Shown: in pieces, positions 14,910 to 63,200 of the stretch
Position numbering within the stretch: the stretch's first letter is position 1
Layout: each line of letters begins with the position of its first letter
NCBI GenBank assembly: GCA_963695855.1
Contig: CAVOHZ010000010.1
Span: 192,001-256,000 of the forward strand
Direction: 5' to 3'
DNA length: 64,000 nucleotides
Source: an uncultured Nitrososphaerales archaeon
Lineage (GTDB): Archaea > Thermoproteota > Nitrososphaeria > Nitrososphaerales > Nitrososphaeraceae
Translations under genes and position numbers: made by a program
Notes under the pieces: model-generated
What the model saw: only the letters and a program-made list of their open reading frames with translations
The model's database searches: none
Told to the model about the DNA's origin: nothing

Positions 14910-15383
14910 CTATTTTTCCATTGGACCCATCATGCCCATTTGACCAGGCATTGATTTCAAACCAGAATGGACCTTGTGCATGAATTCCTCTATTGTCATC
15001 TGGCTAGTTTCCAATATCTGTCCATGTCCCGCGTCAGTTACTACCTTTGTAACGTGATTATTTTCATCTATAACATACGTAATGTAAACTAGGTATCCAT
15101 TTACTGGATGAATAAATGAGGCTATTGCAGATGATTTTTCACCGACATACTGTTGTGCAGTAGATGTAGCATTAGATAGAGTGACATGGATAAGAGGGTC
15201 AAAAGCATTTCTGATTACTGATACTATATCTATAGAACCTGTCCAATTTGCTTGTGGAGTACTAGTCATATTGTTCATTGGTTGGCCATTTGCATTAGAG
15301 ACTATGCTGCTACCAGCTGCTAAGAATGAGATGGCAACAATAGAAGCCATCATTAAGATTCCTAAATTCCTTTTGCGTTGCAT
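14910..15383 (-). CDS. Secreted protein with PepSY-like domain and Met-rich tail
   Basis: N-terminal signal peptide; VTLSNATSTA...NGYLVY...VVTDAGHGQIL resembles PepSY. Confidence 0.55.
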   Translation of the reverse strand: MQRKRNLGILMMASIVAISFLAAGSSIVSNANGQPMNNMTSTPQANWTGSIDIVSVIRNAFDPLIHVTLSNATSTAQQYVGEKSSAIASFIHPVNGYLVYITYVIDENNHVTKVVTDAGHGQILETSQMTIEEFMHKVHSGLKSMPGQMGMMGPMEK

Positions 15384-15532
15384 AATTAAATATTAGAAAA
15401 CTTTACTAAAAAATATTTCTAAAGGTTTAATAAATAAGATGATGACGGATATACTTTTGTAAAAAAGTCATACGATGCGGAATAAAAATAAAAAATACAA
15501 AAAAAGAAAGATATCTTTATAGAAATAAGAAA

Positions 15533-16036
15533 TTAGGATTCCAGAAAAGATCTGAGCATCCAAGCCATCTTTTCATGTTCTTCCATTATTCCGGTCAAGA
15601 AATCTGTAGTTCCTGCGTCACCAAGTTTATCACAAGTTTCTAAATCTTTTCTCAGTTGTCGTACAATAGTTTCATGATCATTTAACAAATTTTCAAGCAT
15701 TCTGTCTGCACTGGTAAAAATATTTGGATATTCAGCGGGATTTTCTTTTAATCTAGTTATTTGTAAAAATTCTGTCATAGTTGCTATAGTTTTTCCCCCG
15801 ATCGATCTCACTCTCTCCGCTACTTCATCTACAATTTCAGATATTTGACCATATTGTTCGTCAAAAAATTTGTGTAGATCGTTAAATCGTGGATCGACTA
15901 CATTCCAATGATAATTCTTTGTCTTGGTTAATAGCAAATATTCATCGGCTAGAATAGCATTCAATATCCCAATTATCTTTTCAACTGATCCATCATCTAG
16001 TCCTATCTTGATTTTTTTAGAAATAATATCACTCAT
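15533..16036 (-). CDS. dps: Dps DNA-protecting miniferritin
   Basis: KTKNYHWNV, LHKFFDEQY, DEVAERVRSIG, EKMAWML; likely start ATG 16036. Confidence 0.95.
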   Translation of the reverse strand: MSDIISKKIKIGLDDGSVEKIIGILNAILADEYLLLTKTKNYHWNVVDPRFNDLHKFFDEQYGQISEIVDEVAERVRSIGGKTIATMTEFLQITRLKENPAEYPNIFTSADRMLENLLNDHETIVRQLRKDLETCDKLGDAGTTDFLTGIMEEHEKMAWMLRSFLES

Positions 16037-16114
16037 AATTATAAAAAAGGTCAGACCACTAATAAGCATTTGTTAAAAGTTAAATATCCTTATTGTATCA
16101 AGGCTCTAACATTA

Positions 16115-17188
16115 TTATGGAATAAGACTTAGAGAAATCAGTGTTCTCCATGATCTATTTTCAAAAACACGAGGATTTAGCCCTCTGATATTTACCTTAT
16201 GAGACATTCTTTTTGATAAATATAGGCCTAATGAACCTAATAGTCTCCACAATCGACTGTTTGGATTTGATAGAAATGAATTCAATGCCAATTTTATAAT
16301 AGAATATGTTGATCTATGATTTTCTGATACATAATCTAACAGTGAATCCTTTGAGGATGACAAAATGTAATGTGCATGTTCAAAAAGTTCTTTTTTGAGA
16401 GCATAATCACTTCTTTGAATTTTTACAGATCCCTTCAACATGCCTTCTAAAATTGAATCAAGGTTGTTTTCGGACTCAATAGTATTGATACAACGTCCAA
16501 GGGTGGAATCAATGTGAGAATCACTTCCCGCAACTGATATCATGTTTTTTTCTTCGGCAAATTTAGCAGCAGCGATATTAGAATAACTATCGATATTGTT
16601 ACTGTTAAAAGATTCGATCAGATCGCATTCCATTGCTTTCTCTCTTATTCCATTCGATACAGCAAAAGGGTGAGCTGCACATGAAACTCCGTTTTGTCTC
16701 TTTATTTCATCGAGAGTTTCATCTATTGTCATTCCTGGTTTTACTGTTTTATTAATTCCATAAGCTAAAATATGACCTTTTGTATCAACTGTAATCTCTT
16801 CTGCAGGATAAATAGTTAAGTTCTTATATTTTTTGTGGTTTTCTTTGTAATCGCATATTTGTTTGTAACCATTAAGGGTGTTGTGATTGGTAACAAACAA
16901 TATGTCTATATTCTTCTCATAAGCCAATTCTAGCTGCTTTTCCATAGTTACACCACAATCATATGGTATTCGAGTTGAACAGTTCATAAAATTAGAGAAA
17001 GTGTTATGACAATGTAATTCCATTCTTAATAACCGAGTCGTATCTAGTAACCAGTAATCCTTAAATGGAATCTCTAATATATCATTATCTGAACCCAATT
17101 TTTTAAATATTATTAATTTTTGATTATCAGAGATAGATTTTTCTGTATATTGAAATAGCACGATCGCTCGAAAATCAAGAATGTTCAA
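16115..17188 (-). CDS. PHP-domain metallophosphoesterase
   Basis: ELHCHNTFS, VTNHN, GHILAYG, AAHPF, AGSDSH; true start possibly downstream. Confidence 0.85.
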   Translation of the reverse strand: MNILDFRAIVLFQYTEKSISDNQKLIIFKKLGSDNDILEIPFKDYWLLDTTRLLRMELHCHNTFSNFMNCSTRIPYDCGVTMEKQLELAYEKNIDILFVTNHNTLNGYKQICDYKENHKKYKNLTIYPAEEITVDTKGHILAYGINKTVKPGMTIDETLDEIKRQNGVSCAAHPFAVSNGIREKAMECDLIESFNSNNIDSYSNIAAAKFAEEKNMISVAGSDSHIDSTLGRCINTIESENNLDSILEGMLKGSVKIQRSDYALKKELFEHAHYILSSSKDSLLDYVSENHRSTYSIIKLALNSFLSNPNSRLWRLLGSLGLYLSKRMSHKVNIRGLNPRVFENRSWRTLISLSLIP

Positions 17189-17769: not shown

Positions 17770-18807
17770 CTATACAGTATTTTTGGCTAGAAACTTTACT
17801 AGATCCACTAGTCTGCATGCAAAACTCCATTCGTTATCGTACCATGAAAGAATCTTGACGTATTTTCCCTTATTGTTTATTACCATTGTACTTAATCCAT
17901 CAACTATTGATGAATGACTATCTCCTATGATATCAGAGGAAACAATAGGTTCCTCTGTATAAGATAATATTTCCTTTAGATCCTCTTTAGATGCTTTCTT
18001 TAGCTCATTATTAATTTCATCTCTTGTGACTTCCTTTTTTAAGTTTAGAACCATATCAGATATAGAACCGTTATTGACTGGAACTCGTAATGCCAGTCCA
18101 TCAATTTTTCCTTCGAGTTCGGGAATTACTGTTCCTATTGCCCTAGCTGCTCCAGTAGTCGTAGGAATAATCGACATCATCGCAGATCGCGAACGCCGAA
18201 GGTCTTTATGATAAGAATCTAAAAGTCTTTGATCGTTAGTATAAGCATGAGTAGTTGTCATGTAACCATTTTCTATTCCAAATTTATCATTTATAACTTT
18301 GATCACTGGGGCTATACAATTTGTAGTACATGACGCCATCGAAATAATATTATGTTTTTGATTCTCATAAATTTGATTATTAACGCCCATAATTAGTGTC
18401 GCATCTGGATTTTTGGCAGGAGCCGAAATAATTACTTTTTTTGCGCCAGAGAGTAAATGCTTCTGCGCGTTCTCATTATCGTTGAACTTTCCGGTTGATT
18501 CCAAGACAAAAAAAATGTTTAAATCCTTCCATGGAAGCTTAGAGGGATCCCTTTCAGAAATAATATTTATCCTTTTTTCTTTATTTATTATCAAGATCTT
18601 TTCAGTTTCGTCTATTTCAATATCTCCTTCAAATTTACCAAATGTAGAATCATACTTGAAGAGATGAGATAGTTCCTTTAAATTTGTCAGATCGTTGATC
18701 GCCTTTACTTCAATGATATTGTTAAATTCTTTGTCAAGAAGAGATGATTTTAGAAAAGTACGTCCTATTCTTCCAAAACCATTGATAGCTAGGTTAAACT
18801 TTGCCAT
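17770..18807 (-). CDS. gap: Glyceraldehyde-3-phosphate dehydrogenase, class I (bacterial/eukaryal type)
   Basis: INGFGRIGR, INDL, KYDSTFG, ASCTTNC, IIPTTTGAA, RVPV, WYDNE. Confidence 0.95.
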   Translation of the reverse strand: MAKFNLAINGFGRIGRTFLKSSLLDKEFNNIIEVKAINDLTNLKELSHLFKYDSTFGKFEGDIEIDETEKILIINKEKRINIISERDPSKLPWKDLNIFFVLESTGKFNDNENAQKHLLSGAKKVIISAPAKNPDATLIMGVNNQIYENQKHNIISMASCTTNCIAPVIKVINDKFGIENGYMTTTHAYTNDQRLLDSYHKDLRRSRSAMMSIIPTTTGAARAIGTVIPELEGKIDGLALRVPVNNGSISDMVLNLKKEVTRDEINNELKKASKEDLKEILSYTEEPIVSSDIIGDSHSSIVDGLSTMVINNKGKYVKILSWYDNEWSFACRLVDLVKFLAKNTV

Positions 18808-18897
18808 ATTATGATTACTAGTTTTTATTCTCTATTAAGGCATTTTCTAATTCAATCAATAAATATAATTTATTTACTAGATTATCACAAGAGCAGT

Positions 18898-19368
18898 ATG
18901 AATGAAAATAAAAGGTTTTCAAAAATTTTAGTTCCCATTGATGGTTCTGAACATTCATTTCATGCATCTCAAGTTGCCCTCAAGATAGCAGAAAAATTCA
19001 GTGCCAAAGTCATTTGTTTATATGTTATTGTATCTCCATCGCCGCAAGAATATGTCAACTTGACAGGACTTGTTACCCCAAAACAAATCGAAAGGATAAT
19101 TGATAACGCAAAGGAAGAATCCAGGGAGTGGTTTGAAAGGATCAGCAAATATGCAAAGGAAGACAAGGTACAAATTGAGATAACAACAGAAGTTATTTTG
19201 ACTGGTTTGGCTGCATATGGTGAAATAATCCAATTTGCTGAAAAGGAAAAAATAGATTTGATAGTTATTGGGACAAGAGGTACAACTGGATTTAAAAAGT
19301 TACTCTTGGGTAGTACTGCATCAGGAGTAGTAACTTATGCTCATTGTCCAGTCATGGTGGTAAAATAA
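18898..19368 (+). CDS. Universal stress protein (USP) 1
   Basis: KILVPIDGS, DLIVIGTRG...LLGSTA...HCPVMVVK. Confidence 0.93.
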   Translation: MNENKRFSKILVPIDGSEHSFHASQVALKIAEKFSAKVICLYVIVSPSPQEYVNLTGLVTPKQIERIIDNAKEESREWFERISKYAKEDKVQIEITTEVILTGLAAYGEIIQFAEKEKIDLIVIGTRGTTGFKKLLLGSTASGVVTYAHCPVMVVK

Positions 19369-19811
19369 AGAATATTCCCTGCCTACATCCTCATTTCCAC
19401 ACTGACCTAGTTTTCACGTACCTTGGATTAGATTGTGCTGGTTGTAATTTTGTTTCGTCTACCGTTATAAATTAAGATAAATTTGTAAAGCTAATAACAA
19501 ATTCGCATTTTTTTTGTTGAATTATTTTGTTTGATGTTGATAAAAGATACCAGTTTGTTTTTTTGGAAACATATTCAACATATATATTTTTGTTATATAT
19601 GAGAATTATCAAAAAAAGATAATGATTTGTTTCCATTCAAATAATACAGGTATATTGACCATCAGTTTCCCTTTCAGATAGTGGCTTTGTTCCGTTCAAA
19701 TTTAGAATGAAAAGTAAAGCATCATTCTATAAGGATTCCCAGACGTATTTTTTTGGTTATTTGTGTATTAATAATGGTAAGTATTTCAATTAAATTCTTA
19801 AATTTAAAATA

Positions 19812-19849
19812 AAATGTAAAAGATAATAATAAATGTAAAAGATAATAAT
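19812..19849. repeat. Perfect 19-bp tandem duplication (AAATGTAAAAGATAATAAT x2)
   Basis: 19812-19830 equals 19831-19849. Confidence 0.85.
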
Positions 19850-19871
19850 GATAGCTTTACTAATCAAACAT

Positions 19872-20327
19872 ATGGATAAATTTACAAAAATACTAGCACC
19901 GATTGATGGGTCAGAACCTTCTATGCATGCTGCAAAATATGCCATATCGTTCGCAAAAAAATTTTCGTCCGAAATATATATCGTATCAGTAGTACCGTCT
20001 AAGATAAAATATGGAGATTCTTCTGGTTTTTTCGGCATGGTTCCTCCTAAATACTTTGACAATTATAAAAAGGAAGCTGAAATATGGTTTGATAAGGTAA
20101 AAAAAGGATTAGAAAATAGTGAAAGTAAAAATATAAAGATAAATACAGAAGTAATAACAAGTCCACTTTCTATCTCTGGCACTATTTTGCAATATGCCGA
20201 AAATTTGAACATCGATCTTATCGTCATGGGAACCAAAGGTAGAACAGGATTCAAAAAATTATTAATCGGAAGTACTGCACAAGAAATAATAACTTATGCA
20301 GATTGTGCAGTATTAGTGATTAGATAA
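19872..20327 (+). CDS. Universal stress protein (USP) 2
   Basis: KILAPIDGS, DLIVMGTKGRTG...LIGSTA. Confidence 0.93.
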   Translation: MDKFTKILAPIDGSEPSMHAAKYAISFAKKFSSEIYIVSVVPSKIKYGDSSGFFGMVPPKYFDNYKKEAEIWFDKVKKGLENSESKNIKINTEVITSPLSISGTILQYAENLNIDLIVMGTKGRTGFKKLLIGSTAQEIITYADCAVLVIR

Positions 20328-20537: not shown

Positions 20538-21380
20538 ATGGACGAGAAAGAAGAAGTAATTGCGGAGATGAGGCATGATATAAACCTTAGATCAAATGAT
20601 GGTAAAACTCTTGTATATTCGACTCCCGAATTTAAGAACATTGTATTAAAAAATCCTATTTTAATTGCAGGATTTCCTGGTCCTGGACTGGTGGGTTCTA
20701 TATCTGTAAATTATATGATAGAAAAATTGCAGATCAGACAGATTGGATGTGTAGAATCTGAGTTTATCATTCCTGGAGTTATATATTATGATGGAAGATT
20801 GAGACATCCATTTAGACTCTATTCAAATCATGAAGGCTCTTTATGTGTACTAGTATGTGAAGCGCCAATTTTGATAAGAGGAATAAGTTCCGTGTTAAAT
20901 CTTGTAATGAAATGGTGTAATAATAATAATGTACAGGAAGTTCTGGTGCTAGGAGGATATTCTAGACCCGGTCTGGATGATTCAAAGAGAGAACCTTATA
21001 TATTTTCAAGTATAAATGAAGATAACGTACAAAAAACAAGTTTTGACAGAAAAATAATCAAGACTTATCTAGAACCGACTACTTTTATCGGAGGAATACC
21101 GGGGGGTTTATTATCATCCTCTCTTGCAAACAACATTCCATGTACTGCATTATTCATTCCAACACGAGATGACCTACCAGACGCGGAAGGTGCTGCTATC
21201 ATAATAGAAGAAATTAATAGAATAACTAAGGATGAAAAGCTAAGGGTCGATACAGCTCAATTAAGAGAAGAAGGAGAAAATTTGAAAAAAAGAATGTTAG
21301 AATTTATTGAATCTCTCCGCAAAGAAGTTTCTAGAGTACAGAAGGCATCGGGGGAGGCAGAGCCAATTATTTATGGATAA
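20538..21380 (+). CDS. PAC2-family proteasome assembly chaperone
   Basis: LIAGFPGPGLVG, RHPFRLY, PDAEGAA, C-terminal IYG. Confidence 0.88.
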   Translation: MDEKEEVIAEMRHDINLRSNDGKTLVYSTPEFKNIVLKNPILIAGFPGPGLVGSISVNYMIEKLQIRQIGCVESEFIIPGVIYYDGRLRHPFRLYSNHEGSLCVLVCEAPILIRGISSVLNLVMKWCNNNNVQEVLVLGGYSRPGLDDSKREPYIFSSINEDNVQKTSFDRKIIKTYLEPTTFIGGIPGGLLSSSLANNIPCTALFIPTRDDLPDAEGAAIIIEEINRITKDEKLRVDTAQLREEGENLKKRMLEFIESLRKEVSRVQKASGEAEPIIYG

Positions 21381-21874: not shown

Positions 21875-23101
21875 TCATGTGGAATCAGAATCTATTTTAT
21901 TAATTTTTTTATTAGCGCTCTCCAAGAATCCTCGGCGCTTTCTAGTATACTTTAAGATCTCATCATAATCAGCTCTTTCTTGCGCCGCATTTAGTATGTC
22001 TGTTTTACTCACGAGACCTATCAGTTTGAAATCATCATCAACTACAAATATTCTATTCATCCTTTTTCGAACTAATTGTTCTAAAGCATTATTAACTTGC
22101 ATGTCTGATTTCATAACTATCAAACTTGATAGTGGTTGCATGATATCCATAGTTTTTTTTTCAAAAAGTGATTCTCCTTTCTCTAAAATATCATCTGTTG
22201 TAACCATTCCGAGTAGCACGGATCGATCATCAATGACCGGGAATGATCCCTTTCTATATACATCAAAGTAATCAGAAATCAAATTTCTTATTGATAAATC
22301 AGGTTTTACTGAGACAAAACTTGTATTCATTATATCCTTTAACCTCATATCTTTGAGGAGATTTGACAATTCAAACTGTTGCAGATATGCTTTCGCCCCA
22401 CTTTGAATAAACCATCCTATGAGTATCAACCATAAACCCCCAATCGGAGAGGCCCTAATAAGCACTACAATGCCTAATCCAATTAGAACAAATGAGATGA
22501 TTATTCCAACTTGCACAGATATTTTCGTTGCACGCTGATAATCCAGCCATCTAACCAAGGCAGCCCTTAACATCCTTCCACCATCCATAGGAAAAGCGGG
22601 AAGCAGATTAAAAGCACCTAACAGCATATTCACAATAAAACCATAAAGTAAAACTCCTTTCAATACTTGAAGGTATGATGGTCCTGCTTCTGTTATTTCG
22701 GGACTAATGAAGGTAATTAAAAGAAAAAATGATAAAAAAATGCCCCCCACACCAAAACTTGTTAACGGTCCTATTACAGCAATTTTGAATTCTTTTCTGA
22801 AATCCCGTGTTTCCTCTTTAATCTCAGAAATGCCTCCAAATATAAATAGAATTATTTGATCTACTTTTACTCCATATTTGGTTGATAAAATAGAATGTGC
22901 TAATTCATGGACCAATACAGAAACAAACAATATAATCGCGCCAGTGACTCCCATCACAACATACTCTGTTCTCGTCAAGTTAGGATAGTAATGTGGCATA
23001 AATCCGACTGATAAGGTCCAAGTTAGAAAAACAAAGATAAAGATCAATGTAAAATGTAATTTTATCGGAATATTTTTAATTTTTAATATCTGAAATGACA
23101 T
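21875..23101 (-). CDS. Site-2 (M50) metalloprotease with C-terminal CBS pair
   Basis: HELAH, FIFGG, IAVIGP, FNLLPAFPMDGGR, followed by two CBS domains. Confidence 0.93.
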   Translation of the reverse strand: MSFQILKIKNIPIKLHFTLIFIFVFLTWTLSVGFMPHYYPNLTRTEYVVMGVTGAIILFVSVLVHELAHSILSTKYGVKVDQIILFIFGGISEIKEETRDFRKEFKIAVIGPLTSFGVGGIFLSFFLLITFISPEITEAGPSYLQVLKGVLLYGFIVNMLLGAFNLLPAFPMDGGRMLRAALVRWLDYQRATKISVQVGIIISFVLIGLGIVVLIRASPIGGLWLILIGWFIQSGAKAYLQQFELSNLLKDMRLKDIMNTSFVSVKPDLSIRNLISDYFDVYRKGSFPVIDDRSVLLGMVTTDDILEKGESLFEKKTMDIMQPLSSLIVMKSDMQVNNALEQLVRKRMNRIFVVDDDFKLIGLVSKTDILNAAQERADYDEILKYTRKRRGFLESANKKINKIDSDST

Positions 23102-24328: not shown

Positions 24329-24748
24329 TTGAGCGAATCTAAGGATATTTCAGCCAGTTATGACACTATATTAAAAGAAAGTGCTTTATTAACAACGTTC
24401 TCTGGAATTTTATTTGGATTCATATTAAATATTTCCATTAATCCTCCGATATCTTTTTCATACATTGATAAGGTTCTATTACTTATTGCATTGTATTCAA
24501 TCACCGTTGCGGCATGTCTTTTTGTCATGCCGATTATTTATCATCATATTCAATATCCATACTATGACATTGAGAAAATTAGAAAAAGAAGTCATAGATT
24601 TATATTCACTGGACTTATTCCAGCCGGGATAACACTGGTATTAGGTTTAGATATTGCAAGCTCAGCGTTGATTAACAGACCCGAGGCTTTTATTCTGTCT
24701 ATGATACCAATCATAATGGTTCTGATATTATATATTAAAAGAAAATGA
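24329..24748 (+). CDS. Small four-helix membrane protein (DUF6328-like)
   Basis: Hydrophobic segments; ILFGFIL, MPIIYHH. Confidence 0.6.
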   Translation: MSESKDISASYDTILKESALLTTFSGILFGFILNISINPPISFSYIDKVLLLIALYSITVAACLFVMPIIYHHIQYPYYDIEKIRKRSHRFIFTGLIPAGITLVLGLDIASSALINRPEAFILSMIPIIMVLILYIKRK

Positions 24749-53288: not shown

Positions 53289-55577
53289 TTGATACTAAAT
53301 TTAAATAAATTGAGAATATTTATTTCTGGAACAATACAAGGTGTAGGTTTTAGACCTTTTGTCTATAGAATTGCAAATGAATCTCATCTTTACGGGTATA
53401 TACAGAATAAAGGAGATGGCATTGTGGAGATCTGCGTTCAAGGAAGCCAGAAAAATATTGACATTTTCATGAGAAAAATTAAGAATGAGAAGCCTGTCCT
53501 TGCACATTATGAAGATATTGATATTAGGGATTTTGAAGAGGATAAAAAATACAATGATTTTATCATAATCGAAAGTTCCAATACAAGATCAAAAACAGGT
53601 TCTTCAATCCATCCGGATATTTCAATATGTAAAATGTGCACGTTAGATTTTTTTCAAAATAAAAGAAGATATCAGTATCCATTCATCTCATGTACCGAAT
53701 GTGGTCCAAAATTTACCACATTGAGAAATTTTCCTTACGACAGAACCAATACAACAATGTCAGATTTTCCAATCTGTAAAGAATGCAAATCTGAATATAA
53801 TGACCCAAATAACAGGTTATTTCATTATGAACTAATATCTTGTACAGAATGTGGACCAAAATTTTCTATTGTTGATAACAAAGGTCATATCATCAATACC
53901 ACTGATCCCATAGCACTTTCAGCTGAATTAGTTACGGAAGGTAATATAATAGCAGTAAAGGGTCTTGGAGGTTTTCACATCATAACATCATCCACAAACT
54001 CCGATCCAATAATGAAATTGCGTAATAAAAAAGACAGAAAAAATAAACCTTTTGCGATCATGGGCAAAGATGTTGAATCGATAAAATCATTTGCTTGCCT
54101 AAACGAATTAGAAGAAAAAATACTAACTTCCATAACAAAACCTATTGTTCTATTAGACAAGAGTAATAATTATTTCCTTTCTCCTTTCATTTCACCGAAT
54201 CTCCACAATATTGGTGTTATGCTTCCCTATATGGGGTTACATATAATATTATTCAAATTCATAGAGGAGCCTGCTTTGGTTGTGACCAGTGGAAACGAAA
54301 GTGGTAATCCGATAATAAAAGATAACAAACAAGCTCTTAAATCTTTAGGAAATTATGTAGATTATCTTCTGGTTCATAATAGAGAAATATTTTCGAGATG
54401 CGATGACTCGATTATTAAAATGATAGAAGATACCCCCGTACTATTAAGGAGATCCAGAGGATTCGTTCCATCAAAGATCTCTTTTACTAAAAGTATTCCA
54501 GATTGTATTCTAGCACTGGGTGGAGAAAAGAACGTAACATTATCTATAATATCCAATGAAGACTGTTTCATTTCACAGCATATTGGAGACCTTTATAATG
54601 CAGATTCTTATTTATTTTTTAAGAATACAATTGAACAAATGATGAAATTTCTAAATTTGAAACCCTCTTTTTTTGCGTGTGATTTACACCCTTCTATGTT
54701 GACAACAAAATTAGCTTATAATTTAGCTCAGAATGAATCTAACGTCTTCCAAGTACAACATCATCACTCCCACATAGCCGCTCTAATGGCAGAACACAAC
54801 ATACAGGATATTATAGGAGTAGTATGTGATGGAATTGGATATGGTCTAGATGGAAATCTATGGGGAGGAGAAATATTCAAATGCGAAAATGTAACAAACA
54901 TACAACGAATAGGACATTTAAGTGAGCAACCCATGATAGGAGGAGATTTGGCGACACTAAATCCGTTAAGAATGGCCGCTGGAATACTATTTGGCAAGGT
55001 TGATGGTTTTGAAGATTTTCTATATTCAAATTTAATACGGTTCCAATATGGACATAAAGAAATAGAATCTATCATTAACAATCTACAATCTGATTCCTAC
55101 CCCAAAACCACCAGTACAGGCAGGATACTCGATGCAATATCATCTTTACTTGGAATTTGTTATAAAAGAACTTATGAAGGAGAACCTGCAATATCACTAG
55201 AATCAAGTTCAATAAATGGCAAAGATATTTTCATGGAGCCAGAAATATCAGGAAATATTTTAGATACTACATATTTACTAAAATATATATACGAAAACAG
55301 AGATAGGCTTTCTCGAAAAGATATTGGCTATTCTGCTCATGCCTATCTCGCAAAAGGCTTAGCAGAAATTGCTGGAGAAAATGCACTGTCCACAGGGATT
55401 GAAGTTGTTGGGTTTTCAGGAGGAGTTGCACATAATAAAATTTTTACAAAAATCCTAAAAGAAGAGATTGAGAAGAGGGGGATCAGATTCCTGCTACAGC
55501 AAAAAATTCCACCTGGAGATGGAGGACTTTCTGTAGGTCAAGCTTATTATACTATGAATAAAATTCTAAATAAATGA
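53289..55577 (+). CDS. hypF: Hydrogenase maturation carbamoyltransferase HypF
   Basis: QGVGFRPF, Zn-finger CxxC pairs (CTECGP twice), KGLGGFH, RRSRG, CDLHP, QHHHSH, DGIGYG, GDGGLSVGQ. Confidence 0.97.
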   Translation: MILNLNKLRIFISGTIQGVGFRPFVYRIANESHLYGYIQNKGDGIVEICVQGSQKNIDIFMRKIKNEKPVLAHYEDIDIRDFEEDKKYNDFIIIESSNTRSKTGSSIHPDISICKMCTLDFFQNKRRYQYPFISCTECGPKFTTLRNFPYDRTNTTMSDFPICKECKSEYNDPNNRLFHYELISCTECGPKFSIVDNKGHIINTTDPIALSAELVTEGNIIAVKGLGGFHIITSSTNSDPIMKLRNKKDRKNKPFAIMGKDVESIKSFACLNELEEKILTSITKPIVLLDKSNNYFLSPFISPNLHNIGVMLPYMGLHIILFKFIEEPALVVTSGNESGNPIIKDNKQALKSLGNYVDYLLVHNREIFSRCDDSIIKMIEDTPVLLRRSRGFVPSKISFTKSIPDCILALGGEKNVTLSIISNEDCFISQHIGDLYNADSYLFFKNTIEQMMKFLNLKPSFFACDLHPSMLTTKLAYNLAQNESNVFQVQHHHSHIAALMAEHNIQDIIGVVCDGIGYGLDGNLWGGEIFKCENVTNIQRIGHLSEQPMIGGDLATLNPLRMAAGILFGKVDGFEDFLYSNLIRFQYGHKEIESIINNLQSDSYPKTTSTGRILDAISSLLGICYKRTYEGEPAISLESSSINGKDIFMEPEISGNILDTTYLLKYIYENRDRLSRKDIGYSAHAYLAKGLAEIAGENALSTGIEVVGFSGGVAHNKIFTKILKEEIEKRGIRFLLQQKIPPGDGGLSVGQAYYTMNKILNK

Positions 55578-56754
55578 GGCCGGGTCATAATTATTCCATT
55601 TTCATAACGAATAGAGATAGTTTATTGGTGTATGATGTTTTGGTGAAAAACTATCATTCAATCCAACAAACTAGCACAGAAAAGATCTACATCTATTCTA
55701 ATTAGTATTTTGTATTTGATTGGTTTGATTAGTTGGCCACATAATAATAGAGGAGGAGGAGGGCGTGGTAGACCATATGTCTATCCTCCTACTGTTATAC
55801 TACGATGTTTTATAGTACGTATCTGGTTTAGATTGGATTAGAACAGAGCATTATATGAGTACCTCGCAATGGACCTATCATATAACAGAAAGGTAATAAT
55901 GAAGGGATGTGGACTATCCAGAATACCAAGCAGAAGAACATTTGATAGACACCTTGTCACACTATCTGATGATATCAAAAACAGGATTACTACAATGGGT
56001 GAACTTTTTGTTCGTCATAAAATAATAGATACATCTATTCTCGCAGCAGACAGTACCCTTATCAACGCTAGAGGATATGTCTGGCACAAATCATCTATGG
56101 AAGAGGGAGTAGTACCGCATTCTGGTATTGATACAGATGCAATATGGAGATTCAGCGATACAAAGGAGGGTTGTATATTTGGATACAAATTGCATTTGAT
56201 ATCAAGTACTGGTGGTTCTATCATTGTACCTTTGGCAGCAGATTTTACAACTGCTAACATACCTGATAATGAAATGTACAGTATATTGACAGGAAGTCTA
56301 CCTGTTACAAAAATTAAAAGAACATTATTCATGTCTGCAGATCCTGGATACGATGATGATGAGTTGTATGATCTCGGTACAGATATGGGATTTAGATTGG
56401 TATATCCAGTAAAGAGATATAAAAATACACATGCTGATAGGATAAAACTGATAGAATTTTATGAATCAAATGTTGGACAGGCTGTCTATTCCTTGAGAAG
56501 TATATCAATTGAACTGTTCATAGGTCATATCAAATCGGTATTCAGGATAGATCCATTGCCTTTAAGAGGCTATACCAAGGTTTGTGCATAAGTACTGTTG
56601 TCAGTACTACTATATCAAATACTTGTATACTACAACTGTAAAATTAACAAAGCTAATCCAAGAGCAATCAAATACATGCTAGGAACATAAAGATTGACTA
56701 TATCTATATTATTAACATTTCAATACCAGTTTATTGAATTATGACCCAGCCTCA
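55575..56754 (+). mobile_element. DDE insertion sequence (IS4/IS5/IS982-like), transposase broken by stops
   Basis: 18-bp IRs TGAGGCCGGGTCATAATT / AATTATGACCCAGCCTCA; ADSTLI, FGYKLHL, ADPGYD, RSISIE; exact family uncertain. Confidence 0.8.
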
Positions 56755-56772
56755 GATATTTAGTAAATATAT

Positions 56773-57240
56773 TCATCTCACAATTAAAACTGGACAATGA
56801 GAATAAGTCGCAACTTGAGATGCTGTGCTACCTAATAATAATCTTTTAAGACCTGTTCTTCCTCTAGTACCTATTACTATTAGATCTATTCTTTGTTTTT
56901 CTGCATAATCTACTATTTTTGGACCTATCGAAGAAGATACAATTATATCAGTTTTAATATCAATTTCTTTATCCTTTTCATATTCTTTGGATATTTTTCT
57001 AACTGAATCAAACCATTCGTTTACTTCTTTTTTTTTCTTTTCAATTAATTTATTTGTATCTTCAGGTCGTTCTGTCGCAAAAGGATGTAGAGATAGATCA
57101 AGTTCAGTCGGATGTAAAATATTTAATATAATTAATTGAGCGTCATGTTGAATAGATAATATTATTCCAAATTTAGCTGCATCCATTGAAAATTTCGAAC
57201 CATCTATAGGGACTAATATCTTTGATAATTTTTCCTTCAT
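56773..57240 (-). CDS. Universal stress protein (USP) 5
   Basis: KILVPIDGS, DLIVIGTRGRTGLKRLLLGSTA, HCPVLIVR. Confidence 0.93.
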   Translation of the reverse strand: MKEKLSKILVPIDGSKFSMDAAKFGIILSIQHDAQLIILNILHPTELDLSLHPFATERPEDTNKLIEKKKKEVNEWFDSVRKISKEYEKDKEIDIKTDIIVSSSIGPKIVDYAEKQRIDLIVIGTRGRTGLKRLLLGSTASQVATYSHCPVLIVR

Positions 57241-57424
57241 GAATTCTTTTCACGGTTTTATATAATATAAGGTAATACTTTCTAATTCTCTCTTATTGAC
57301 AAATGTTTCAGTCAAGCTTAAAGCTATACCAACTATCTTGTTTTCTAATTATCAATTTTAGTAAGCAAAAATACCAATTAAGATAAATATGCTTACCCAC
57401 CTCTAACCAAGTAATTTCTCATAT

Positions 57425-58100
57425 TCAGATTAAATCCTTTTGTTCTAAAATATGTAAATATTTAATTATGAAATCTGTAAATGACTGATAGTATTGTAGG
57501 ACAGGCAGATCGTTTTTGGCTATATTCCAGCATTCCTCAAGTACCATAAATTCTGGAGATGCTGTTGGAAGATATACAGGAATCAGATACTGTTTATGTT
57601 TGTCAAAATATTGCAGTACCTTTTTTGATTTATAGTGTTGTTTTGCTTTATCCAAAATGTATAACATTTTGGAAACTTTCTGTGTATCTGTTTTAGATAA
57701 TCCAGAAATGTATTTTCATCAAACCAGTCATATTGCCTAAACAGTTGTTTTCCTTCTAAACTTGTGGCACCAAATCAAACTGACTCCTGATGAGATCCAT
57801 TAATCCTTACTACTGGTCTTTCATCTTTTCTTATCCAGACTCTTCTTACAAGAGAGTCAAAGAAAAAGAATGATTCATCCATAGATACTACTGTGAACTC
57901 TTTCTGGAGAGTATCCAATATCTTTCTGGCTCTTTTTTAAAACGTTCTTTCTCTTCTTTTGATGCTGTATTTACATATGTATTTCTAAGTACCTTCTGCT
58001 TGAATCCACACATATCCATGAGTCGGTATATGTAAGTGTAATGGTATGTGATTTCACTCTTTTTCACAATTAGATCTTCAACCTGTTTTGTAGGCCAGCC
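57425..58100 (-). mobile_element. Degraded IS630-family element
   Basis: GWPTKQV...YIYRL...VNTASKEEKERFKK, SMDESFF, ILDKAKQH, PTASPEFMVLEECW in shifting frames. Confidence 0.8.
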
Positions 58101-58855: not shown

Positions 58856-59170
58856 ATGTGTTTGGCTTTTCCTGGCAAGATAACTGAAATAGTAGGAGAT
58901 TTTGCCAAGATAGATTTTGGTGGAGGTACTATGAGAAATAATATTAATATTTCCTACGTCGATGGTCAAGTGGGAGATTATGTTCTTATTCATGCAGGAT
59001 ATGCAATCCAAGTGTTGGATCTGGAGGAGGCTGAAAATATATTGAAATACTGGGTAGACAATACATCCTGGAAGTGCAATCAGTGTGAAATAATAAATGA
59101 ATGTTTCACAGGAAATTTGGTTAAAGAAGTAAAACAGATTAAACATAATAAATTGGGTTCAGAATCATGA
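58856..59170 (+). CDS. hypC: Hydrogenase maturation chaperone HypC with Cys-rich C-terminal extension
   Basis: MCLAFPGKI, VGDYVLIHAGYAI. Confidence 0.95.
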   Translation: MCLAFPGKITEIVGDFAKIDFGGGTMRNNINISYVDGQVGDYVLIHAGYAIQVLDLEEAENILKYWVDNTSWKCNQCEIINECFTGNLVKEVKQIKHNKLGSES

Positions 59171-60276
59171 TTCTAGAAAAATACAAAGATCCCGATTTAG
59201 CAAAGAACATTACTGAAAAGATCCATGAATATGCCGATTTGATAGAAGAGAATCTGCTTTTTATGCATGTTTGTGGATCTCATGAATGGACAATATCACA
59301 CTACGGTATAAGGTCTTTGATTCCTAAAAATATAGAGATAAGACCTGGACCGGGCTGTCCTGTTTGTATTACTCCAGCTGAGGATATAGACAATGCCGTA
59401 AAACTCGGTTTAGAGGGAAAAACGATTTTAGTATATGGAGATATGTCAAGATCGAAAGGATCTAAAGGAAAAAGCCTTTTAGATATAAGGGTACTTGGTG
59501 CTAAGATCAGGATAATATACAGCATACAGGAAGCCATATTATTAGCAAGAAATGACCCATCAGAAGACTTTGTCTTTTTCGGAGTAGGATTTGATACCAC
59601 GGCACCTCCGACGGCATTTGAGATATTGAAAGGTTTACCGCCGAATCTTGCTATTATTAATTCTTATAGATATATGCCTCCAATAGTTGGAGCAGTTATA
59701 AAATCTTCTGTACTAGGTGTCGATGCAGTATTAAATCCGGGACATTCATCCACAATAACTGGAATGAAACCTTATTACAGATATTTTCTAGAAACTAGAA
59801 AACCTCAAGTCTTTTGTGGATTTGAACCTATTGATATTTTATTGGGAATTCTCATCCTATTAAAACAAATAAAAGATGGAAAGGCGAAACTAGAAAATGA
59901 ATATCAAAGGTCAGTCACATGGGAAGGAAATAAAAATGCTCAGAAAAAACTTGAAGATGTCTTTGACCTGGACACAGGATATATAAGAGGAGTAGCAAAC
60001 ATTCCAGAATGCGGTTTTACCTTTAAGGAAAAATATAAGGATGTTGATGCATATGCCAGATATGGTTTATCAAAGCAAACAAATAATGAACATTTTGTAG
60101 CGGGAGCTCGATGCGGTGAAGTGATTTTAGGTCTTTGTGAACCTACTGAATGTCCGCTATATATGAAAGAGTGCACTAAACAGACACCTAAAGGGCCTAC
60201 AATGATTTCTCTCGAAGGGACATGTAGAATATGGGCTGAACATAATCTGATTAAATCTATAAAAAAACTTTCGTAA
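59167..60276 (+). CDS. hypD: Hydrogenase maturation protein HypD
   Basis: HVCGSH, GPGCPVC, GVGFDTTAP, PGHSS, GFEP, C-terminal Fe-S Cys cluster. Confidence 0.96.
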   Translation: MILEKYKDPDLAKNITEKIHEYADLIEENLLFMHVCGSHEWTISHYGIRSLIPKNIEIRPGPGCPVCITPAEDIDNAVKLGLEGKTILVYGDMSRSKGSKGKSLLDIRVLGAKIRIIYSIQEAILLARNDPSEDFVFFGVGFDTTAPPTAFEILKGLPPNLAIINSYRYMPPIVGAVIKSSVLGVDAVLNPGHSSTITGMKPYYRYFLETRKPQVFCGFEPIDILLGILILLKQIKDGKAKLENEYQRSVTWEGNKNAQKKLEDVFDLDTGYIRGVANIPECGFTFKEKYKDVDAYARYGLSKQTNNEHFVAGARCGEVILGLCEPTECPLYMKECTKQTPKGPTMISLEGTCRIWAEHNLIKSIKKLS

Positions 60277-60295
60277 TATTCAATATTGATCTCTT

Positions 60296-61078
60296 ATGGC
60301 TTTTTTTATAGGAAATAGTTTTTGTAAACTCTGTCAAAAGGATGAAGAACAACTTGAAAATGAATTATTTTACAGCACAAAGGGACTAATTAATAAGGGT
60401 TATTCGATAATTAAAAATACACTAAATAGTGCACGACTCCCAAATTATGACGACTTTTTCGTAACATATTTTAAAAATAATATATGGAATTCAGATATCA
60501 AAGTACTAAAAATAAATATAAAAGATTGTTCTAATAATCATGAAAATCCCACAAACGGTGTTGAGGTTGATAAAGGCGAAATTTTGCTACATACAAAAAT
60601 ATATCAAGCTCGTCCGGATGTCAATGCTATTTGTCATACAAGGAATCCATATTCGATAATTTTAGAGAATGATACTTTCAAAAGAGTACATGGAGAAGCT
60701 ACATTGATCTTAGGTGACATCCCAATAATAGATATTGAAAATTTTTCTGATGAAAATAGAACTAGGAGCTTTATAGAAAAAATAGTTCAATCAACAATAG
60801 GAGAGCCCCTAAGACCGATAAGAACCGTAATCTTATCAAACAATAGCGTTTTGGCTCTTGGTTCCTGCATACATGAAGCAAGAGCATTTACAGAAATACT
60901 GGAAGAATGTGCCAGATTTTACATGATATCTAAAATTTTTGGGGGACCGCTAAATCTGCTTACACTTGATCAATTGAGAGGTTTGGGATCGAGATATGCA
61001 AGAGCCATAAAATTTGGAGGAAGACAAATAATGTCTAATGCGAATCATCCAGACGATCAGATTAATAAAAATTTTTGA
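60296..61078 (+). CDS. Class II aldolase/adducin-fold protein, degenerate metal site
   Basis: LHTKIYQARPDVNAICHT..PY, ILSNNSVLALG..IHEA, ILEECA. Confidence 0.7.
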   Translation: MAFFIGNSFCKLCQKDEEQLENELFYSTKGLINKGYSIIKNTLNSARLPNYDDFFVTYFKNNIWNSDIKVLKINIKDCSNNHENPTNGVEVDKGEILLHTKIYQARPDVNAICHTRNPYSIILENDTFKRVHGEATLILGDIPIIDIENFSDENRTRSFIEKIVQSTIGEPLRPIRTVILSNNSVLALGSCIHEARAFTEILEECARFYMISKIFGGPLNLLTLDQLRGLGSRYARAIKFGGRQIMSNANHPDDQINKNF

Positions 61079-61482
61079 AAATGACGCTAAAAAAAATTCT
61101 AGTTTTTGGTAATCCTTTGGTTAGAAGGGACAGTATACCTCTAAAATTAATAGATAATCTTAGAAATGAATTTCCTAATATAGAATTCAAAGAATTTGAT
61201 TCAATTGAAGAGATACAAAATGAAGGGGATACCCTTTACATTCTGGATTCGGTAGAAAAAATAAAAAAAGTGATGGTAATAACCGATTTAGATCAATTGG
61301 CTACAGACAAAATATATTCGGTACATGATTTTGATTTAGCTATCAACCTCAAGATCCTAAAGAAAATAGGTGTGATAAAAAAGATAATTATTCTTGGCGT
61401 GCCCATGAATATTACGCATAGTCAGGCATTACAAGAGATTAGAGAAAAAATTATATCCATTTCAATCTCAAAAAATGACTAG
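61075..61482 (+). CDS. Hydrogenase maturation endopeptidase (HycI/HybD-like, short form)
   Basis: VFGNPL..RD, ILDS, SVHDFDL, IIILGVP; abuts the large subunit. Confidence 0.8.
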   Translation: MKMTLKKILVFGNPLVRRDSIPLKLIDNLRNEFPNIEFKEFDSIEEIQNEGDTLYILDSVEKIKKVMVITDLDQLATDKIYSVHDFDLAINLKILKKIGVIKKIIILGVPMNITHSQALQEIREKIISISISKND

Positions 61483-62728
61483 CACAGCTCATACACGGAT
61501 CGTATGCCCTTATTATTTTTTCAAGCTCATGATAAATAAAATGTTTATCTTTGTCTAAAATGCTAGGTAAAAGATTTTTTATATCATTTTCCATCTTAAT
61601 TTGATTTTGTGCTGTTGGTATTATAAAGTTGGCAAATTGTACTTTTCCTTCTCTGTTAAGTTCAACCATATGATACAATGTACCACGAGGAGCCTCTATT
61701 ACTCCAACTCCTTTACCTTCTCCTGTTTTAACTTCTGGTGCTGGCTCCTGGTTAAATTCATTTTCTTCAAGAATTTGAATTGTGTGATCTATACAATGTA
61801 AAATTTCAATAGATTGTGCAAGATTATTATGATAAATATTGTTTGATGGAAAGATTTTAAGGATTTCAGATAAATCTTTCTTTGAATCATTATGAATAGA
61901 TTCTTTATTCAAGTTCAACCTAGCCAAAGCTCCTACCATGTATTCTTTGGTCCTGAATCTAAATCCAGTAGCCTGAGAGTATGGTATAATAATTCTTTCT
62001 AGGTGATTCCAATATTCATCCTTTTTTATTTTCATTCCATCTGAAGAAGCGATTTCACCTTCCAAAAAACTAAAATCGTCTGTAACTAAAGATACGAAAG
62101 TGGATTCTCTACTAAGGTCAAAATTGCATTCATAAAATATTTTTATGAGTTCAAGAACCGTATCTCTAGTTTCTTTAAATTGTGACAATACTTCTTTCAA
62201 ATTTTCTTTTGAGGGTAGATGAGAAAACTGTCCAACCTTTTCAAATGTTGGGTGAACAGCCCTGCCAGCAACTATTTTCGAAAGATTATTTCCAAGACTC
62301 TTTACACTGAAACCTTGTTTAATTAGATAATTTTTTGAATCGTCAAAATCAAATACTGAATCGGTGTTAAAGACATCAGGAAGACAGAAGAAGTACAAAT
62401 GTAAAGCGTGATCCCTTATCATCATCCCATATACAGATAACTTTCTTAATAATTCGGTTTGTTTTGTTGGTGTGATTTGGAGACATTTTTCAATTGATTC
62501 AATGCTACAAGTTAAGTGTGCTATGCTACATGTACCACATATCCTAGAAACAAATTGTGGAACACTAGAAAAATGTCTATTTCGTACTGCTTGTGTATAA
62601 AATCTTTTATTTTCATTTATCTTTAATTTGACATCTTCTACTTTACCATTCCTAATTTTTACTTCAATGTCTGCATGACCTTCTGTTTTGCTTATTTGTT
62701 CTATATTGATATCGAAACTATCATGCAT
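61451..62728 (-). CDS. [NiFe]-hydrogenase large subunit, group 3b-like
   Basis: KTEGH, L1 SRICGTCSIAH, GRAVHP, YMVGALAR, EAPRGTLYH, PTAQN, L2 RAYDPCMSCASH plus cleavable FLRLKWI tail. Confidence 0.92.
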   Translation of the reverse strand: MHDSFDINIEQISKTEGHADIEVKIRNGKVEDVKLKINENKRFYTQAVRNRHFSSVPQFVSRICGTCSIAHLTCSIESIEKCLQITPTKQTELLRKLSVYGMMIRDHALHLYFFCLPDVFNTDSVFDFDDSKNYLIKQGFSVKSLGNNLSKIVAGRAVHPTFEKVGQFSHLPSKENLKEVLSQFKETRDTVLELIKIFYECNFDLSRESTFVSLVTDDFSFLEGEIASSDGMKIKKDEYWNHLERIIIPYSQATGFRFRTKEYMVGALARLNLNKESIHNDSKKDLSEILKIFPSNNIYHNNLAQSIEILHCIDHTIQILEENEFNQEPAPEVKTGEGKGVGVIEAPRGTLYHMVELNREGKVQFANFIIPTAQNQIKMENDIKNLLPSILDKDKHFIYHELEKIIRAYDPCMSCASHFLRLKWI

Positions 62729-63200
62729 TTACAAGACCAAATTCCTTTAGATAACTATCTAATTTTGATAAAAATAATTTTTCATCCATTGGACATCCTG
62801 GAATGAAATCATCAACATTTACAAATTCTGAAATAGGCGATACTTTGCTTCTATTTCCAAACTTGACTAAAATAGGGGAAATCTCATTTTTTGTTGATTC
62901 ATCAAAGAAATTTCTTTGATTAGCTGGACTTCCTGAACACGCACAACTCCCTATTGCGATTAATTTTTTTGAATTCTTCCTTATCTCTTTAAGAAATTCA
63001 AGCTCTTTGTCACTTGAAATTGCTCCTTCTACAAAAGCCAAATCTAAATCAGTAAAATCGTTTTTCCCTTTTAAAGTTCTAAAATATTTAAATTCCAATA
63101 GATCTTTCCACTTGACAAAATTATCATTCATTAATTCAATGAATACTATCGTACTGTCTTCACAACATGTAAATGAAAACCAGCCAGTTTTGAGTTTCAT
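62721..63200 (-). CDS. [NiFe]-hydrogenase small (delta-like) subunit, short form
   Basis: WFSFTCCEDS, FVEGAI, AIGSCACSG, VDDFIPGCP; likely start ATG 63200; overlaps the large-subunit start. Confidence 0.88.
   Translation of the reverse strand: MKLKTGWFSFTCCEDSTIVFIELMNDNFVKWKDLLEFKYFRTLKGKNDFTDLDLAFVEGAISSDKELEFLKEIRKNSKKLIAIGSCACSGSPANQRNFFDESTKNEISPILVKFGNRSKVSPISEFVNVDDFIPGCPMDEKLFLSKLDSYLKEFGLVNA

Follow-up and report, generated by a model that had tools for sequence, protein, structure and literature searches.

A two-gene NiFe hydrogenase among universal stress protein and CBS genes of a soil Nitrososphaeraceae archaeon: a probable composite neighbourhood with a candidate redox valve

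Ammonia-oxidising archaea (AOA) drive soil nitrification, and the soils that they inhabit often turn anoxic. In this study, a 64,000-nucleotide stretch of DNA (hereafter the window, C10:192001-256000) was analysed from the genome of a Nitrososphaeraceae archaeon (G000; 3.55 Mb, 11 contigs, 99.9% complete by marker genes), which carries archaeal amoA and encodes a 2-oxoacid:ferredoxin oxidoreductase. The GC content is ~31%. A region of about 48 kb, which adjoins a pur/ArgRS/GCD14 housekeeping block on its left, holds a two-gene NiFe hydrogenase (hydD-hydA) with maturation genes at its right end and a series of stress-related genes to the left of them. A preliminary description had taken this region for a hypoxia and dormancy island that mirrors the mycobacterial DosR regulon. 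The 67 frames of the window were scanned against Pfam and NCBIfam, and 79 further frames from the gaps against Pfam. By these scans and by motif, the five universal stress proteins (USPs), the CBS-pair protein, the M50 protease-CBS fusion, Dps, PolX, the class I GAPDH, the CoA-transferase and the GASTG-motif hydrolase listed in that description were all recovered (Table 1). The region was compared with 24 congeners, among them G014 and G012 (~92% and ~70% protein identity to G000) and G017 (98% complete), and with 150 other genomes from 18 genera in a family-wide comparison.

A two-subunit hydrogenase related to group 3b

The large subunit HydA retains both motifs required for NiFe ligation, RxCGxCxxxH and DPCxxCxxH, in the form of L1 RICGTCSIAH and L2 DPCMSCASH. 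Its best PDB matches were the alpha subunits of the cytosolic hydrogenases of Thermococcus kodakarensis and Pyrococcus furiosus (E 8e-58 to 5e-56; 5yxy and 9nez at E ~1e-57), compared with E 3e-42 for group 3c and E ~2e-34 for groups 3d and 3a. The best NCBIfam match was ShyA, at 270 bits far under the equivalog cut-off of 700. The window enzyme shares with the group 3b sulfhydrogenases of Pyrococcus and Thermococcus the cytosolic type, the similarity of the alpha subunit, the intact L1 and L2 CxxC motifs, and the hyp genes and endopeptidase-like gene beside it. However, a group 3b delta subunit has ~240-270 aa and three FeS clusters, whereas the match of HydD (~160-178 aa) to the 261-position HydD model is confined to positions 5-154, and its cysteines would serve one cluster, the proximal one. 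Furthermore, the group 3b heterotetramer is encoded with its beta and gamma subunits next to alpha and delta, and neither lies near hydDA. A tblastn search of the genome, for which the G032 beta and gamma subunits served as queries, gave no beta subunit, and its sole gamma-like match was 31% identical and 850 kb off; a beta subunit was likewise found in none of 55 related loci. Identity between the window enzyme and that of an order-level relative, which has four subunits, reaches only 33%.

Because hypE lies directly upstream of hydD in G014 and G012, the two-gene form is native and not an artefact of an insertion sequence (IS). Judged from its genes, the hydrogenase is predicted to be a minimal heterodimer related to group 3b, without diaphorase subunits. 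The group 3b-like hydrogenase with maturases of the preliminary description stands as to its intact motifs and HypC, HypD and HypF, and has to be restricted to two subunits without a diaphorase.

The maturation set comprises HypC, HypD, HypE, HypF and the endopeptidase-like gene, and no hyd or hyp frame is disrupted, the identity to the G014 counterparts being 88-97%. The hyp/hyd cluster of Nitrososphaeraceae also keeps, at 29-95% identity across loci, two aldolase-II-like genes and the genes of a Zn-ribbon protein (89 aa) and of a 123-aa protein; in G000 these four genes occupy 60296-61078 of the window and L003:2396-3720. The aldolase-II-like, Zn-ribbon and 123-aa genes gave no matches in the DPANN loci described below. 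These conserved genes could encode unrecognised maturation factors, and the 89-aa and 123-aa proteins, encoded after hypE, are candidates for the part of HypA and HypB in nickel insertion.

Distribution and phylogeny of the hydrogenase

Relatives of the hydrogenase were collected by peptide patterns in a scan of species genomes, which yielded the 55 loci (16 from Nitrososphaerales and 39 from DPANN archaea and the candidate phyla radiation, CPR). Large-subunit identity was 68-96% to Nitrososphaeraceae and 'Nitrososphaera sp.' metagenome-assembled genomes, 53-65% to Aenigmatarchaeota, 48-57% to Micrarchaeota, Woesearchaeota, Nanoarchaeota and Pacearchaeota, and 44-48% to two CPR bacteria. hydD lay directly upstream of hydA in 53 of the 55 loci, a protease-like gene was beside them in 50, and the triad of a short hydD, hydA and a convergent protease-like gene was seen in at least 50. 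The two-gene hydrogenases of DPANN and CPR, which carry the label 3b in the literature, have the same triad as the window enzyme (61-65% identity to Aenigmatarchaeota in this comparison). A gamma-like match occurred in 6 of the 39 loci outside Nitrososphaerales; in part at least, these matches may represent pyrK next to pyrD.

In a quick maximum-likelihood tree (LG+G4, SH-aLRT, 55 rows, rooted on a single long branch), 15 Nitrososphaerales large subunits formed one clade (SH-aLRT 100) with an Aenigmatarchaeota group as its sister (98), and the clade lay nested within the DPANN rows. Nitrososphaeraceae appear to have gained the hydrogenase once from Aenigmatarchaeota-like DPANN archaea, and many species would have lost their copies later. 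A NiFe large subunit was detected in 9 of the 24 congeners, with no match in G017, and in 12 of the 150 other genomes (4 of the 18 genera), where one copy with stop codons is a pseudogene. At G129:C35:2116-3342, a large-subunit frame with two stop codons was seen as a sign of decay. The occurrence of an intact DPANN-type NiFe hydrogenase with maturation genes in ~8% of the sampled Nitrososphaeraceae species genomes offers a concrete testable handle, and it is a documented case of gene exchange that links DPANN with a free-living lineage of archaea.

Elsewhere, this type of enzyme occurs in very small symbiotic archaea. Unlike the DPANN and CPR hosts, the host of the window is a free-living aerobic ammonia oxidiser, and its hydrogenase is accompanied by hypCDEF, aldolase-II-like, hydrolase, and CBS and USP genes. 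The DPANN and CPR loci, searched with the window proteins, gave no HypD, HypE, aldolase-II-like, hydrolase, CBS or USP match; HypF matches were obtained in three (26-35% identity) and HypC matches in two (38-42%). The context of these 39 loci pointed to no redox partner, the neighbours being a HypC-like fusion protein, an EamA transporter, CorA and others. The minimal two-subunit architecture raises the question of the electron-exchange partner.

According to two papers, the second of them a review, a 3b hydrogenase is present among AOA only in the thermophilic Nitrosocaldus (PMC5817080, 2018; PMC10432482, 2023), and Nitrososphaera and Nitrosocosmicus have only non-catalytic 4a-like complexes without CxxC. 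The window clade is distinct from the four-subunit 3b enzyme of Nitrosocaldus. A 3b hydrogenase in Nitrososphaera gargensis was considered and dropped, being contradicted by Table 1 of PMC5817080. Our literature search, which covered listings and selected passages, found no paper on this hydrogenase in Nitrososphaeraceae or on low-oxygen induction of USPs in AOA. The passages of PMC7554672 describe expanded Dps and other stress families in Nitrososphaerales, and the word hydrogenase does not occur in that text.

Two gene sets in one neighbourhood

In G014, the same genes were found in the same order within 32.9 kb, without the ISs, a 6.6-kb block and USP5. In G012, they form two clusters on different contigs, which argues against a single unit. 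Contig C12, by pur/ArgRS/GCD14, carries a secreted 157-aa protein (hyp157), the PHP hydrolase, USP1, USP2, a CBS protein, the APH-like protein, USP4, the CoA-transferase, a USP, a CBS protein and GAPDH. Contig C1 carries the CoA-disulfide reductase (CoADR)-like gene, cupredoxin, the hydrolase, hypFCD, an aldolase-II-like gene, hypE, hydDA and the protease, as well as USP5-like and USP3-like genes, a P-type ATPase, a USP and two CBS genes. G017 keeps the first gene set, and another contig there holds the hydrolase, a 130-aa HypF relic, USP5, USP3-like genes and pieces of the P-type ATPase; the relic was located at C30:1114-1506, beside the hydrolase. The synteny proposed as a check in the preliminary description held in full in G014, but not in G012 with its two clusters or in the hydrogenase-free G017, and the genes differ in their distribution among the congeners.

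Smaller groups were retained more widely. The order GCD14-hyp157-PHP-USP1-USP2 is conserved in G012, G014 and G017, with USP1 and USP2 orthologues of 65-70% identity in G012 and G017 and an M50-CBS orthologue of 64% identity in G017. The group of the APH-like protein (hyp334), USP4 and the CoA-transferase is conserved on C12 of G012, and the hydrolase-HypF pair in G012, G014, G017 (with the HypF relic), L067 and L093. P-type ATPases flanked by USPs also occur at G012:C1 and G017:C30, and in six congeners or more a USP adjoins GAPDH or is no farther than 2.5 kb from it. The recurring units are gene pairs: GAPDH with a USP, the P-type ATPase with USPs, the APH-like protein with USP4, and hydDA with CBS or USP genes. 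Among the 24 congeners, HypF was present in 9 (8 in common with the large subunit), the GASTG hydrolase in 21, type I GAPDH in 14 (7 of the 9 with the hydrogenase and 7 of the 15 without it), and USPs in all, with 3-22 matches each.

On balance, and by a little more than an even chance, we read the region as a composite chromosomal neighbourhood of stress and energy-status genes, linked loosely and conserved in part, of a soil ammonia-oxidising Nitrososphaeraceae archaeon, not a single island, which joins two gene sets and in which the hydrogenase serves as a redox valve. The first set would comprise USP1-USP2, the PHP hydrolase, Dps, type I GAPDH, M50-CBS, PolX, the APH-like protein with USP4, and the CoA-transferase. 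The second, an accessory hydrogenase set, would comprise hydD-hydA, the maturation protease, hypC, hypD, hypE and hypF, the two aldolase-II-like genes and the GASTG hydrolase, with the CoADR-like reductase, CBS-pair proteins, USPs and the P-type ATPase close to it.

Insertion sequences and structural damage

About ten IS copies or fragments lie in the window, none of which appeared in the preliminary description. Compared with the IS-free 32.9 kb of G014, the IS load has stretched an ancestral 33 kb to 48 kb. C10:200-300 kb contains the two bins of highest IS density among 77, a ranking biased towards the window by the choice of the scored families from the window itself. IS5 elements at 33200-35100 lie between the two parts of a broken Nramp gene; in G014, the counterpart of 30975-38049 is contiguous and IS-free, but its Nramp aligns in three pieces. 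The 6.6-kb block looks like a mobile insertion in the spacer between the CoA-transferase and the hydrolase: it is bounded by 51-nt direct repeats of 94% identity (45578-52269) and contains 69-nt tandem repeats at 45877-46179, two IS copies and an Asn-rich membrane protein, where G014 has 108 bp. A further IS-flanked insertion, which carries USP5, separates hypF from hypC, 60 bp apart in G014. The last element, a 907-bp IS5-family copy recognised by the G014 alignment and with more than 30 related copies in the genome, sits in the divergent intergenic region of hydD and hypE. It lies 62 nt ahead of the ATG at which hydD probably starts, and on that side a TATA-like box has been spared.

Such damage would fit an alternative in which the region is no functional unit, being a stretch tolerant of recombination and insertion where dispensable genes and ISs pile up and the overlap with DosR is a coincidence of common families. 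For the scored families, no other region of the genome is as rich in ISs, two insertions (one of them the block with direct repeats) are not in G014, Nramp is broken, every congener has its own USP matches, ~20 CBS proteins are encoded in the genome, and gene content differs between species. Nevertheless, the USP paralogues are old and maintained, the same gene pairs recur in differing genomic contexts, and the hyd and hyp frames have stayed intact. We regard this alternative as improbable.

Clustering of USP and CBS genes

All five USPs of the region matched PF00582 (E 1e-26 to 3e-32), and every one except USP3 contains the ATP-binding motif G-2x-G-9x-G-(S/T). Five of the 13 USP matches of the genome fall within 48 kb, 1.4% of the 3.55 Mb, where ~0.18 would be expected, and five of the seven strongest lie there as well. 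The clustering of USPs exceeds chance. The paralogues are mutually 27-47% identical and each has an orthologue of 47-72% identity in another species; being old and orthologous across species, they have therefore been maintained. Within 10 kb of hydDA, a CBS pair was found in 10 and a USP in 6 of the 16 Nitrososphaerales loci, and neither in any of the 39 DPANN and CPR loci, where the relatives compared are non-independent samples.

Stress-related genes also lie to the right of the window. About 10 of the ~20 CBS proteins of the genome fall in C10:197-360 kb, together with an HSP20 set among CBS genes, a second gene each for a ferritin/Dps and a P-type ATPase, and two fusions of cyclase and receiver domains, interspersed with core carbon-fixation genes. 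A four-CBS protein, the HSP20/alpha-crystallin protein and two further CBS proteins stand in series at C10:355908-359590. The second P-type ATPase, of Ca/Na type, is at C10:341239-344022, and the second ferritin/Dps at C10:315090-315692. The two fusions, near-identical 396-aa proteins with an adenylate/guanylate cyclase and a response-regulator receiver domain (C10:278415-279605 and 337601-338791), are the only signalling proteins seen within ~110 kb right of the window.

Regulation and comparison with DosR

No DosR/DosS-like regulator or haem sensor kinase was present among the Pfam hits in 173 kb (the window, L003 and C10:275-365 kb). That no sensor or regulator is visible in the window, as first described, was confirmed for the window Pfam hits, and the regulator sought in the flank was not encountered as a DosR/DosS-type gene in the 109 kb to the right; the regulators of C10:275-365 kb were only the two cyclase-receiver fusions and an HxlR protein. 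In the comparison of orthologous upstream regions, the conserved promoter boxes were gene-specific only. The box AATGTAAAAGA directly upstream of USP2 (19790-19847) was kept in G000, G014, G012:C12 and G017:C10 and is duplicated in G000 and G014; USP1, USP5 and hypE each have a conserved promoter-proximal box of their own. A repeat upstream of both the CBS gene and Nramp was rejected as a shared cis-element, as it is an IS end.

Like DosR, lxa and NmpR, low-oxygen persistence gene sets of obligately aerobic bacteria, the window combines CBS proteins and more than one ATP-binding USP with a cation P-type ATPase in an aerobe. The lxa locus of Burkholderia cenocepacia is a contiguous low-oxygen cluster of ~50 genes with six USPs (PMC3721108), and NmpR of Myxococcus controls a CBS protein and a USP with the ATP motif (PMC11841059). 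Unlike these systems, the window belongs to an archaeal host, no cognate regulator or shared operator was found, the hallmarks alpha-crystallin, nitroreductase and ribonucleotide reductase are not in the window, and the gene set was not inherited as one unit. The HSP20 lies ~100 kb off, and the hydrolase carries no PRTase domain. The families shared with DosR (USP, CBS and P-type ATPase) are very common.

Several items of the proposed DosR content changed on inspection. The CoA-disulfide reductase is a flavoprotein with the motif SYGSCGLPY, but its 429 bits to TIGR03385 are under the cut-off of 579, so that it is only CoADR-like, and the cation P-type ATPase, although present, is of the Mg-translocating MgtA type (TIGR01524). 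The PPOX relic could not be located: the 13 matches to PF01243 in the genome all fall outside the window, and the 79 gap frames gave only IS fragments and the Nramp remnant. The sole candidate for the COG2187 protein (41766-42770) is APH-like, and no AAA domain was detected in its 334 aa. The 495-aa frame at 47420-48907 was rejected as COG2187, as it encodes the Asn-rich membrane protein in an insertion not in G014. Part of the DosR gene list used for the comparison, that of Mycobacterium tuberculosis, appears in PMC3721108. The order USP-USP-(PAC2)-M50-CBS would resemble the USP/USP/M50-CBS/CBS cluster of that bacterium.

It is quite unlikely, in our judgement, that the whole 48 kb is one co-regulated hypoxia and dormancy regulon equivalent to DosR, with a fermentative H2 sink and a regulator elsewhere. 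The family overlap is real (USPs, the CBS pair, M50-CBS, a P-type ATPase beside a USP, and a 3b-like hydrogenase), DosR-like content is listed for the low-oxygen locus of another aerobe in the lxa paper (PMC3721108), and the right flank has the HSP20 and the cyclase-receiver proteins. However, the genes form two clusters in G012, the hydrogenase was lost independently in G017, and no shared motif and no DosR/DosS-type genes in 173 kb were found. Moreover, the ATPase is of Mg type, the APH-like protein is alone, the PPOX relic was not found, and the hydrogenase has none of the NAD(P)-linked subunits of the Mycobacterium smegmatis-type 3b enzyme. The likeness to DosR holds for broad protein families only. 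The observation itself was largely right; its interpretation as a DosR-like island overreaches.

Proposed function of the hydrogenase

We propose that the hydrogenase would act as a redox valve once respiration and ammonia oxidation stall, and that each ATP-binding USP or CBS protein is probably an energy-status partner of the adjoining gene (GAPDH, the P-type ATPase, the kinase-like protein or the hydrogenase). Oxygen shortage would be the likeliest trigger and ferredoxin a plausible partner; the direction of H2 turnover, like partner and trigger, is inferred. Ferredoxin is a possible donor because the genome has the 2-oxoacid:ferredoxin oxidoreductase. The leading hypothesis, a plausible one with DosR, lxa and NmpR as bacterial precedents, would be a part in persistence at low oxygen or low energy. 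In PMC11094006, 3b and 3d enzymes of hot-spring Nitrososphaerales are described as redox valves against oxygen fluctuation, and a 2026 preprint places Nitrososphaeraceae in deep, flooded rice soil. A more specific version, in which some soil AOA took a minimal ferredoxin-linked NiFe hydrogenase from DPANN and use it as a USP/CBS-controlled H2 electron dump in anoxic spells, is possible but doubtful; if true, it would mean an anaerobic persistence metabolism in mesophilic nitrifiers regarded as obligate aerobes and a new two-subunit subclass of the group 3 hydrogenases.

Four RNA libraries from soil and rhizosphere, which come from three studies and offer no condition contrasts, had contigs that matched the region at 92-100% identity. 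These covered hypC/hypD in all four runs, hydA/hydD in two, hypF in two (X15 and X19) and the hydrolase in one (X19); X17 and X19 also had contigs on the aldolase-II-like gene, and X15 on the protease-like gene. No weight attaches to the gaps between such contigs.

Several observations weigh against the redox-valve and persistence reading. The RNA-library contigs may reflect DNA carry-over. HypA (PF01155) had no match over the cut-off anywhere in the genome, and the only GTPase of the cobW/HypB family, at C10:890780, is 640 kb away and possibly UreG. The IS between hydD and hypE and the insertion splitting hypF from hypC leave function in this strain not assured, and the broken frames of purL and Nramp suggest that the assembly may hold indel errors. 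USPs, the hydrolase and GAPDH also occur in congeners without the hydrogenase, and the link is therefore loose. No shared upstream motif was found when exact k-mers of 7-10 nt were counted in 26 upstream regions against 2643 background regions; none survived multiple testing, the best of the tens of thousands compared having reached p 2e-5 before correction, with divergent pairs, which share DNA, counted twice. Finally, with a single long-branched outgroup and relatives gathered by pattern, the direction of transfer is not proven.

A further alternative is that the hydrogenase takes up H2, as reductant to restart ammonia oxidation or for maintenance in oxic starvation, the USP and CBS genes being unrelated stress genes. 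Group 3b enzymes are described as bidirectional and oxygen-tolerant and oxic H2 use is proposed for the Nitrosocaldus enzyme (PMC5817080, PMC10432482), and DNA of the stretch was found in soil, cave and wetland metagenomes (14 runs of 7 studies, one possibly the source). Yet the closest relatives are all DPANN and CPR enzymes, and PMC8421398 interprets the 3b enzymes of DPANN (Woesearchaeota) as H2-evolving. Furthermore, no respiratory-chain or NAD(P) link is encoded beside the hydrogenase, and CBS and USP genes beside it are commoner than genome density predicts. H2 uptake has a low probability in our view, and the redox valve within a composite neighbourhood is the reading retained.

Other features of the window

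The features are collected in Table 1. The left edge of the neighbourhood is the block of hyp157, Dps and the PHP/CehA-like metallohydrolase.

Table 1. Features of the window and of the adjoining hyp genes, with positions in window coordinates
Feature	Position	Strand	Basis and remarks
Block of hyp157 (secreted, 157 aa), Dps and PHP/CehA-like metallohydrolase	14910-17188	-	Pfam, NCBIfam
Dps	15533-16069	-	Pfam/NCBIfam
PHP/CehA-like metallohydrolase	16115-17188	-	Pfam/NCBIfam
Type I (bacterial-type) GAPDH	17770-18807	-	TIGR01534, 443 bits, cut-off 367; divergent from USP1
USP1	18811-19368	+	PF00582, E 5e-30; ATP motif; true start likely near 18898
USP2	19848-20327	+	PF00582, E 7e-29; ATP motif
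PAC2 proteasome-assembly chaperone	20538-21380	+	Pfam
M50 site-2 protease fused to two CBS domains	21875-23101	-	Pfam
Block of DUF6328 membrane protein, then PolX	24329-26730	+	Pfam/NCBIfam
PolX (polymerase beta-like and PHP domains)	24946-26730	+	NF006375, 487 bits, cut-off 426
IS481-family transposase	26845-27750	+	NF033577, 204 bits, below cut-off 224; not at this place in G014
USP3	27940-28416	+	PF00582; exact ATP motif absent
CoADR/NADH-oxidase-like flavoprotein	28516-29916	-	TIGR03385; SYGSCGLPY
CBS-pair protein	30327-30845	-	Pfam
IS481-like copy	30975-31955		Pfam, repeats
Nramp, broken	32051-33200; remnant 35126-35368		IS5 elements between
Cupredoxin	36023-36853	-	Pfam
IS630 fragments	37058-38049		Pfam
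MgtA-type P-type ATPase	38319-40847	-	TIGR01524, 731 bits, cut-off 611; divergent from USP4
USP4	41124-41588	+	PF00582; ATP motif
APH-like phosphotransferase, 334 aa	41766-42770	-	Pfam E 0.1; atlas score 0.98
188-aa membrane protein	within 41766-45601		listed between APH-like gene and CoA-transferase
FadX-like CoA-transferase	43925-45601	+	NCBIfam/Pfam
6.6-kb insertion	45628-52219		tandem repeats, two IS copies
Asn-rich membrane protein, 495 aa	47420-48907		translation; inside 6.6-kb insertion
Dienelactone-hydrolase-like hydrolase	52344-53006	-	GASTG motif; divergent from HypF
HypF	ends 55577 (pair with hydrolase 52344-55577)	+	TIGR00143, 800 bits, over cut-off
IS-flanked insertion carrying USP5	55869-58100		between hypF and hypC
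USP5	56773-57240	-	PF00582; ATP motif
HypC	within 58856-61482	+	TIGR00074, 60 bits, over cut-off
HypD	within 58856-61482	+	TIGR00075, 367 bits, over cut-off
Class II aldolase/adducin-like protein	60296-61078	+	within hyp cluster
Putative hydrogenase maturation protease, 135 aa	61075-61482	+	weak HycI match, E 0.0077; homologue beside hydA in 50/55 loci
hydA, NiFe large subunit, 425 aa, 3b-like	61451-62728	-	NCBIfam, PDB matches
hydD, NiFe small subunit	62721-63257	-	178-aa frame, probably 160 aa from ATG at 63203
IS5-family element, 907 bp	63262-64168 (past window end 64000)	+	between hydD and hypE
HypE	beyond window end (L003)		AIRS domains and position
Zn-ribbon protein, 123-aa protein, second aldolase-II-like gene	beyond HypE, outside window		Pfam of L003

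The sole tRNA found when tRNA and integrase borders of an island were sought is at 5199-5274, distant from the region. In the housekeeping block, purL (FGAM synthase II, 7080-9322) is split into three overlapping frames (7080-7445, 7423-7857 and 7775-9322), the last of which is a single 507-aa alignment in G014, the comparison covering that piece only. This break is either a pseudogene of an essential gene or the result of assembly indel errors, the latter bearing also on the Nramp frameshift. Just downstream of the P-type ATPase, a 68-nt copy (38234-38301, 82% identical) of the internal Nramp segment 32300-32367 is probably a relic of an older rearrangement. At 29811-30033, a 72-nt segment from the 5' end of the CoADR-like gene, encoding part of the N-terminal FAD-binding region, is duplicated 151 nt upstream at 99% identity, a duplication not present in G014.

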